Below, in pieces: positions 3,882 through 4,102 of a stretch of 9,991 nt of DNA. Origin of the DNA: a virus (Duplodnaviria; Heunggongvirae; Uroviricota; Caudoviricetes); IMG/VR virus record IMGVR_UViG_2690316346_000015, positions 1 through 9,991 of that record. One strand, given 5' to 3'. Positions within the stretch are counted from its first letter, which is position 1. Each line of letters opens with the position of its first letter. Both the position numbers and the translations under genes were made by a program. Below the pieces are notes generated by a model that was not told the DNA's origin, ran no database searches, and saw only the letters and a program-made list of their open reading frames with translations.

Positions 3882-4102
3882 TGTTCACCTTTTGCTATTT
3901 TCTCTTTCAATTCATAATGTTAAGGGGTGAACAGTTTCACAAAAACTATTCACCAACTGTTCACCACTGTTCACCCTTGCAGCTCAATAAACAATCAAAA
4001 AGGTGAACAGTGAATAGTTTGGTGAACAGTTCATAAATAACTGTTCACCCTATAATATAATGATATAAAAGACATTTATGACGGGGTGAACAGTGGTGAA
4101 CA
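3882..4102. repeat. replication origin iteron array (copy 1): TGTTCACC octamers in both orientations
   Basis: Perfect octamers at 3882, 3958, 3968, 4042 (TGTTCACC) and 3926, 4002, 4021, 4085, 4095 (GGTGAACA), plus a degenerate copy at 3947, flanking an AT-rich stretch (4050-4080). Lies 15 nt downstream of the replication-protein stop. The octamer matches the P4 type I iteron as I recall it. Confidence 0.8.

Follow-up and report, generated by a model that had tools for sequence, protein, structure and literature searches.

Two arrays of the octamer TGTTCACC/GGTGAACA, each located next to a replication gene, are very probably the replication origins of PICI-type Enterobacteriaceae satellites (here, E. 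coli islands) that use the iteron of phage P4, as judged from sequence comparison. The kind of origin is already known and has been validated in a homologue, EcCICFT073 (PMC6092414). The additions made here are modest: an allele carrying the P4 word, the dyad structure of the array, and a series of paired wing and iteron variants. The array is unannotated in the 594 of 5,426 complete E. coli genomes in which it is found and has homologues in many Enterobacterales; once named, it can serve as a simple marker of such origins.

First, the repeats were counted in the window, that is, the whole 9,991-bp stretch of DNA analyzed. An exact search returned 18 copies of TGTTCACC/GGTGAACA, with nine copies at 3882-4102 (array 1, belonging to element B), eight at 9471-9691 (array 2, element A), and a single one at 5388-5395. 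In 200 dinucleotide-preserving shuffles of the window, TGTTCACC occurred 0.36 times on average and at most 3 times. The possibility that the repeats are a chance or low-complexity artefact is negligible, since none of the 200 shuffles reached 18 copies and the array is kept in the 594 E. coli genomes and across genera. The individual sites, from exact and mismatch searches, are as follows.

Array 1, perfect iterons (n=9, exact search): 3882+, 3926-, 3958+, 3968+, 4002-, 4021-, 4042+, 4085-, 4095-
Array 1, degenerate iterons (mismatch search): 3947+ (TATTCACC), 4009- (TATTCACT), 3874+ (CCTTCACG)
Array 2, perfect iterons (n=8, exact search): 9471+, 9547+, 9557+, 9591-, 9610-, 9631+, 9674-, 9684-
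Array 2, degenerate iterons (n=4, mismatch search): 9515- (TGTTAACC), 9536+ (TATTCACC), 9598- (TATTCACT), 9463+

The first-pass annotation had listed nine perfect and one or two degenerate copies in array 1; the nine perfect copies were recovered by the exact search, and degenerate copies are indeed present, but they number three. Degenerate copies are equivalently placed across the arrays (3947/9536, 4009/9598, and 3874/9463), with TGTTAACC at 9515 found in array 2 only. Together with their flanks (3852-4401 versus 9441-9991), the arrays share 92.9% identity, in line with the near-identical second array that had been placed at 9471-9691. Array 1 and array 2 differ at 2 of 95 iteron positions and at 14 of 170 positions elsewhere, a marginal difference (P value, 0.058). 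The extended iteron consensus is (A)CTGTTCACC, and array 1 matches that of an intact island at 100% identity. The gap between the rep stop codon and the first iteron is 15 nt for array 1 (stop at 4117-4119, minus strand), as originally noted, and about 30 nt for array 2 (stop at 9722-9724). Both arrays therefore lie directly 3' of rep reading frames, as the first-pass annotation had it, but the second rep is interrupted by an IS3-family element.

The layout of the two putative origins, which we call origin B (array 1) and origin A (array 2), is given below.

3874..3975, unstranded: origin B distal half; iterons 3874+ (degenerate), 3882+, 3926-, 3947+ (TATTCACC), 3958+, 3968+
3976..4001, unstranded: origin B central spacer; 26 bp, 69% AT, dyad axis between inward-facing iteron triplets
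4002..4102, unstranded: origin B gene-proximal half; iterons 4002-, 4009- (degenerate), 4021-, 4042+, 4085-, 4095-
9463..9691, unstranded: origin A; architecture as origin B, with 8 perfect and 4 degenerate iterons

When each plus-strand site of array 1 was paired with a minus-strand site, the 12 sites resolved into six mirror pairs (coordinate sums, 7974-7977) about an axis at 3987-3988.5, with a tolerance of +/-1.5 bp. An inverted-repeat search, run independently, agrees with this mirror symmetry. The spacers are AT rich, at 75% (3890-3925, 36 bp), 69% (3976-4001), and 77% (4050-4084, 35 bp) compared to 53% for the window, so that the earlier description of repeats in both orientations around an AT-rich core is confirmed by the six mirror pairs and by spacers of 69-77% AT. 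Counted from the stop codon, the sites up to the central spacer lie at offsets 15 ->, 25 ->, 68 <-, 89 ->, 100 -> (degenerate), and 108 ->, and those beyond the 26-bp spacer lie at 142 <-, 152 <-, 163 <-, 184 ->, 228 <-, and 236 <- (degenerate). By analogy with SaPI and PICI origins (PMC9371898, PMC6092414), the central spacer at 3976-4001 is a candidate site for melting or for helicase loading. Neither array contains or adjoins a DnaA box, an IHF consensus site, or a GATC.

In Gram-negative PICIs, according to Fillol-Salom et al. 2018 (PMC6092414), the origin directly follows pri-rep on its 3' side and has an AT-rich region with a set of iterons on either side; the same paper reports that the pri-rep-ori of EcCICFT073 maintains a plasmid and that deletion of either part abolishes maintenance. 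Helper-phage induction is likewise documented for this homologue. For comparison, EcCICFT073 was located in the CFT073 genome, and its iterons were read there. The two systems share the gene order DUF4222, Pri-Rep, ori, small ORF, SSB, and the Pri-Rep proteins are 48% identical over their full length, N-terminal domain included. Sites in the EcCICFT073 ori lie at offsets 15, 24, 72, 92, 103, 112, 145, 156, 224, and 233, in the same orientations as those of the window array, for which the compared offsets are 15, 25, 68, 89, 108, 142, 152, 163, 184, and 228; the corresponding spacings are 9/48/20/11/9 in EcCICFT073 and 10/43/21/11/8 in the proximal half of origin B. On the strength of these matching offsets and orientations, the window arrays are positional and architectural homologues of the validated origin. 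In contrast, the iterons are TGTCTACC/TATCTACC in EcCICFT073 and TGTTCACC here, the wing reads TRKVKGVTQTN there and KRKTKHGLRSN here, and the cargo modules also differ.

The window itself holds only rep, ori, and cargo, and shows the PICI arrangement of an ori immediately 3' of the initiator, opposed iteron sets, and an SF3 helicase with a C-terminal winged helix. The island context, comprising an integrase, an AlpA-type regulator, a one-directional operon, an attachment site, and a length of about 10-15 kb, is found in the intact copies L003, L089, L095, and L098, which run int, AlpA, further genes, DUF4222, Pri-Rep, ori, and cargo. The ends of L003 are marked by a 49-bp direct repeat in tRNA-Ile. 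For the AlpA-type regulator, a Pfam match was obtained in L087 and L089, and L003 has only a generic helix-turn-helix annotation.

A similar arrangement is known from SaPIs, whose Reps are SF3 helicases with a C-terminal winged helix that bind iterons located shortly after rep and need no ATP for origin melting; the SaPI ori has 6-12 short iterons, half on each side of an AT-rich center and in opposite orientations, and is specific for the cognate Rep (PMC9371898). The likeness to the islands studied here lies in a self-loading SF3 helicase with a C-terminal winged helix and in iterons immediately downstream of rep. However, the sequence relation is distant (7OLA, E=1.8e-10, helicase part only), the iterons of SaPIs measure 5-6 nt rather than 8-10 nt, and the hosts belong to another phylum. 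Papillomavirus E1 and SV40 large T offer an analogy only: these SF3 helicases are brought by a sequence-specific DNA-binding domain to palindromically arranged sites on either side of AT-rich DNA, where they load as double hexamers. Their DNA-binding domain has another fold and is N-terminal to the helicase, and the origins are not homologous.

Next, the arrays were compared to phage P4. In the P4 genome record, TGTTCACC is annotated as "ori type 1 repeat" in both ori (9310-9413) and crr (4291-4590), and the octamer had been correctly identified in the first-pass annotation as the type I iteron of these two sites. P4 alpha binds type I iterons, in agreement with the GenBank annotation and the title of the 1KA8 entry. 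A full-text literature search for the octamer gave unrelated primer matches only. In both P4 and the window, an array stands just after the initiator gene; in P4, however, the array directly downstream of alpha, which follows its stop codon, is crr, an auxiliary cis site and not the initiation site, and ori1 is 4.5 kb away. This position argues against an origin and would fit a crr-like auxiliary cis element, such as a Rep-binding enhancer or looping partner, with initiation elsewhere as in P4. Type I repeats in both orientations, 5-6 per unit, are likewise present in P4 crr, but their orientation order is unlike that of the window array. The site syntax instead fits P4 ori1, since the spacings of 10/43/21/11/8 in the proximal half of origin B, mirrored in the distal half, compare to 10/43/22/11/10 in ori1, and each half-array thus has ori1 spacing. 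Furthermore, complete islands contain only one iteron cluster each, with no second cluster, and the homologous region of EcCICFT073 together with rep suffices for plasmid replication (PMC6092414). We therefore consider a crr-like role quite unlikely and the origin reading preferable.

The octamer and the half-array spacing are those of P4, but the P4-type origin named in the first-pass annotation needs correction as to layout: the origin is one compound, dyad-symmetric array of the PICI type, with a single cluster per complete island, and not the bipartite ori1 plus crr on which P4 depends. Type II 10-bp tandem repeats lie next to ori1 in P4, and none were found in the window. P4 also has a terminator between alpha and crr, in contrast to rep and the array here, as no terminator-like sites were found across 3500-4300. 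The P4-like satellite core set comprises psu, delta, sid, epsilon, alpA, alpha, and int (Moura de Sousa & Rocha 2021, PMC8628076). The islands have int, an AlpA-type regulator, and an alpha-related rep, but sid, psu, delta, and epsilon were absent from the island genes listed, on the basis of annotations, called genes, and Pfam lists only, so that by these lists the core set is incomplete. In place of sid, psu, and delta, the islands carry a ClpP-capsid fusion with DUF1441, or Phage_cap_E with HDPD and Nu1. Earlier descriptions treat P4 and the Gram-negative PICIs as no more than distant relatives; here, their replication modules share a binding site and half-origin syntax.

The arrays could also serve mainly for control, through titration or handcuffing of Rep (copy control, satellite incompatibility) or as an operator for downstream genes. 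Plasmid iteron arrays do both jobs, the array of element A lies 53 nt upstream of the 81-aa ORF and SSB genes, and the stretch between rep and the array is free of terminator-like sites. However, a scan of 3500-4300 found no promoter-like site inside array 1, and the dyad symmetry, the AT-rich spacers, and the EcCICFT073 precedent favor initiation. Control functions of this sort would add to an origin role and not replace it, and we regard control as the main function as highly unlikely.

To describe the protein expected to act at these origins, the rep reading frames were analyzed by domain searches and structure prediction. The features of the two rep copies are as follows.

4117..5493, minus strand: Pri-Rep gene fragment; 3' 1377 nt, residues about 147-605 of a 605-aa protein
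4156..4446, minus strand: predicted origin-binding winged-helix domain; ORF residues 352-448, 1KA8 match
4195..4224, minus strand: beta-hairpin wing; ORF residues 426-435, KRKT-KH-GLRS, varying with iteron class
9722..9991, minus strand: rep' of element A, C-terminal winged-helix part; wing identical to copy B

The ORF beside array 1 carries D5_N, DUF5906 (SF3 helicase P-loop), and Pox_D5 domains, and its helicase and DNA-binding parts are 51% identical to residues 320-771 of P4 alpha. Residues 352-448 match the P4 origin-binding domain in PDB 1KA8 (E=1.2e-24, about 50% identity). An AlphaFold model of the winged helix built from a 44-sequence alignment reached a pLDDT of 76 (a single-sequence model, with a pLDDT of 46.7, was discarded), and the top Foldseek match of this model was 1KA8_A (TM 0.87, rmsd 1.7 A), with nothing else significant in that search. 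An alpha-type winged helix is thus shared with P4. The N-terminal parts differ: that of alpha matches Zn_Ribbon_Prim and Toprim_3, whereas residues 1-144 of the intact 605-aa Rep are unrelated to this Zn-ribbon/Toprim region and gave no Pfam or NCBIfam match. This 144-aa domain (L003:14975-15406, minus strand, outside the window) is conserved and also occurs in EcCICFT073. The primase activity implied by the name Pri-Rep is only putative for these proteins. Where the N-terminal domain of intact rep gives way to the helicase, just upstream of window position 5493, there is a poly-A tract (…AAGAAAAAAGAG…) that, relative to L003, lacks 1 nt in three assemblies and has 1 nt extra in one (L089:5010-5070, L087, L091, and L092). 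The length change splits the 605-aa rep gene into 141-aa and 451-aa parts and could reflect homopolymer sequencing error, phase variation, or programmed frameshifting.

To explore how the iterons and the initiator vary together, we surveyed one genome per species, taking the best 80 of 427 tblastn-confirmed matches (proteins 64-88% identical). In 72 of 79 loci from these best 80 of 427 matches, the first 300 nt downstream of rep contain one 8-mer at least five times, compared to 19 of 552 control segments. Within the same best 80 of 427, the sites are conserved in orientation and in position, at about 16, 26, 69, 90, 101, 109, 153, 163, 184, 228, and 236, and the octamer switches among six versions, TGTTCACC, TGTCTACC, TCTCCACC, TGTCCGCC, TGTCCACC, and TATCTACC, used as follows.

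TGTTCACC: Klebsiella, Citrobacter, Raoultella, Pectobacterium, Pantoea, Xenorhabdus, Photorhabdus, P4
TGTCTACC: E. ruysiae, Kluyvera, Enterobacter, Lelliottia, Scandinavium
TCTCCACC: Yersinia, Rahnella, Edaphovirga, Erwinia
TGTCCGCC: Serratia
TGTCCACC: Serratia
TATCTACC: a Raoultella MAG

Identity across six TGTTCACC-using genera is 90% in iteron columns, compared to 61% in the spacers. When the C-terminal domains were aligned by iteron class, they proved mostly conserved, with one segment varying in both sequence and length according to class.

Class F wing segment (TGTTCACC): Y-x-KRK-TKxG[ILM]R[ST]N
Class T wing segment (TGTCTACC): KRKQCTRGPDKGRTISN
Class E wing segment (TCTCCACC): RKKSTKGNMRSN
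Class G wing segment (TGTCCGCC): KKAESKKKATRGRIQSN

In the model, this segment corresponds to the beta hairpin 426-435 that follows helix 406-418 and is therefore taken as the wing of the winged helix. Alignments of 1KA8 and RFX1 identify helix alpha-3 and the beta2-beta3 wing as DNA-contacting elements (PMC2777425). Pairwise comparisons separate the wing from the rest of the protein. L018 and L010 have helicase parts that are 96% identical, wings that are 46% identical, and different iterons; L032 and L034 likewise have 96% identical helicase parts, with wings at 52% and the iterons TGTCCACC and TGTCCGCC. L015 and L033, by contrast, have helicases that are only 75% identical yet have wing type and iteron in common. 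Three alignment columns, all in the last 65 residues, fully separate the TGTTCACC users from the others. One of the three, R396, was dropped as a discriminating residue, as P4 has E at this position.

The co-variation of iteron and wing is confounded by physical linkage and shared ancestry, as the wing codons lie 100-300 bp from the array and would be co-inherited in any case. However, about 11 dispersed sites that change together at fixed positions require selection for a common reader, and the wing may be the element that sets which octamer is read. The earlier proposal that a 460-aa protein recognizes the array through its C-terminal domain is supported as regards the domain, with a P4-type origin-binding fold (1KA8, E=1.2e-24; TM 0.87) and iteron/wing co-variation, but not as regards a 460-aa gene product. 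The same co-variation bears on whether the array has nothing to do with Rep and serves instead in packaging (cos/pac), partition, or recombination. In favor of this, helper cos/pac sites are known from satellites, and an array of repeats can resemble a centromere; against it, the site bound by P4 alpha is this very octamer, which co-varies with the Rep wing and not with capsid or terminase modules, and the rep-ori module occurs with differing cargo and packaging modules. We regard such a role as extremely improbable.

For the origin reading, we infer binding by this Rep, a wing that acts as specificity reader, double-hexamer loading, and the melting site. Pri-Rep, with its 144-aa N-terminal domain, D5_N/SF3 helicase, and C-terminal winged helix, would bind the 8-10-bp (A)CTGTTCACC iterons through the winged helix, the beta-hairpin wing selecting the octamer that is read. 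The 12 sites would constitute two mirror-image half-origins with P4 ori1 syntax flanking AT-rich spacers, and from two such halves the head-to-head assembly of two Rep hexamers would be expected. These hexamers would melt the AT-rich DNA and self-load, leading to bidirectional replication after induction and excision of the island. Neither rep copy adjacent to the arrays in the window is intact, so that firing there would need a Rep of the same specificity in trans.

More tentatively, and less likely than not, the wing could be a compact, swappable specificity cassette, with at least six orthogonal iteron "dialects" on one fixed origin scaffold and the wing and ori exchanged as a unit among helicases that are otherwise nearly identical. 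P4 alpha and this Rep, which share the octamer and ori1 syntax, may then fire each other's origins, and an intact Rep might fire the orphan origins of decayed neighbors. If true, this would mean cross-replication, incompatibility, or parasitism between two satellite families regarded as independent. The six iteron variants paired with wing variants on one scaffold form a testable specificity code that could be used for orthogonal replicons.

Iterons after the gene occur more widely. The Serratia phage Scapp, a temperate full-size phage, has an alpha-like primase-helicase followed by iterons with the word AAAAGTGCA (L004:3020-3340), and the architecture is therefore not restricted to satellites. 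In the distant relative Pasteurella Pmp7, the layout is kept with TTCAC-core sites.

The apparent tandem of elements A and B, and with it the 460-aa ORF, calls for caution. The two elements meet at one position in the window.

5493..5494, unstranded: junction where the rep fragment of element B meets the distal end of element A; homology break

Window positions 1-5493 are 99.7% identical to an intact island of E. coli CFSAN064035, whose gene encodes 605 aa, and the rep fragment at 4117-5493 is 99.7% identical to the gene of locus L003, while positions 5494-5969 match the distal end of such satellite islands. The 460-aa ORF, which extends to 5499, is therefore the rep fragment (residues about 147-605) plus two unrelated, foreign codons. 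No ribosome-binding site was found for this ORF, and the exact 460-aa product is absent from the records, in which a 451-aa version with an ATG start is present. The window equals a public draft contig (GCA_001258815.1, CXEQ01000074.1) save for one base, as the contig has an N at window position 5494; the one other N of the contig is also at a repeat join (the two positions are L088:4560 and L088:14137), which suggests faulty scaffolding of the contig. Over about nt 421-1320, an exact repeat of roughly 900 bp, the rep genes of the A and B types are 100% identical, and the junction, at about nt 437 of rep, coincides with the left edge of this repeat. The 5493/5494 junction is absent from the 5,426 complete E. 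coli genomes. In complete genomes, A-type islands are found at cspD-clpS and B-type islands at rcnR-thiM or tRNA-Ile. Collectively, the N at the junction, the repeat edge, and the separate island sites indicate that the tandem arrangement is most likely due to a mis-join in scaffolding; two islands in genuine tandem, fused by a deletion, became the less favored reading once the junction N and the repeat boundary had been found. Both the apparent tandem duplication and the 460-aa gene are thus most likely products of scaffolding across repeats, and an intact B-type rep gene probably exists in the real genome. At the other end, the contig starts with 47 nt of an IS3-family element that abuts rep' of element A and interrupts it 15 nt beyond the window edge, so that rep' is also disrupted, just outside the window; the same IS splits the gene in other genomes. 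The arrays themselves are unaffected by the mis-join and the IS interruption.

The remaining copy of the octamer lies within rep, where the first-pass annotation had located it (about 5387-5395).

5388..5395, minus strand: lone intragenic TGTTCACC; codons T-V-H-H, functional site unsupported

The intragenic ori2 of P4, which is cited in PMC6092414, would be a precedent for a site of this kind. The octamer in the window, however, does not track specificity: it is lost by synonymous changes (ACGGTTCATCAT) in the same-specificity relatives L007, L010, and L013 from other genera and is present in relatives with other iterons (L027 and L033). An ori2-like or autoregulatory role was rejected for want of support, and the octamer is best read as a coding coincidence, a by-product of the T-V-H-H codons, with its occurrence across E. 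coli islands following from a near-identical stretch of rep. A second intragenic near-iteron, GGTTAACA at 4683-4690, arises from conserved A-V-N-N codons (GCG GTG AAC AA). It has a one-mismatch copy in P4 alpha (L001:5193-5200), is exact in L026 and L028 (rep nt 806) and in nine Xenorhabdus/Photorhabdus loci, and is probably a coding coincidence as well.

Several features of the neighboring genes were also observed. The ClpP-protease/major-capsid fusion gene of element A (6227-8094, minus strand) is split into overlapping ORFs of 381 and 252 aa; it is also split in L094 and is intact (626 aa) in L097 and L098. The fusion of element B is intact, encoding 637 aa at 746-2659. Origin A is followed directly by an ORF of 81 aa and an SSB gene (8754-9418, minus strand), an order also seen in EcCICFT073. 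In element B, this place is taken by an ORF of 180 aa on the opposite strand (3012-3554, plus strand) with a weak HEPN-domain match, which is probably accessory or defence cargo; it lies within a low-GC stretch (24-36% GC) extending over 2850-3850 between origin B and the capsid genes. One rep-ori module occurs with two helper-exploitation sets, either the ClpP-capsid fusion with DUF1441, or Phage_cap_E with a head-decoration protein, a second AlpA, and Phage_Nu1 (window 3-575, minus strand, L087, L092, and L095), which suggests modular shuffling among E. coli PICIs.
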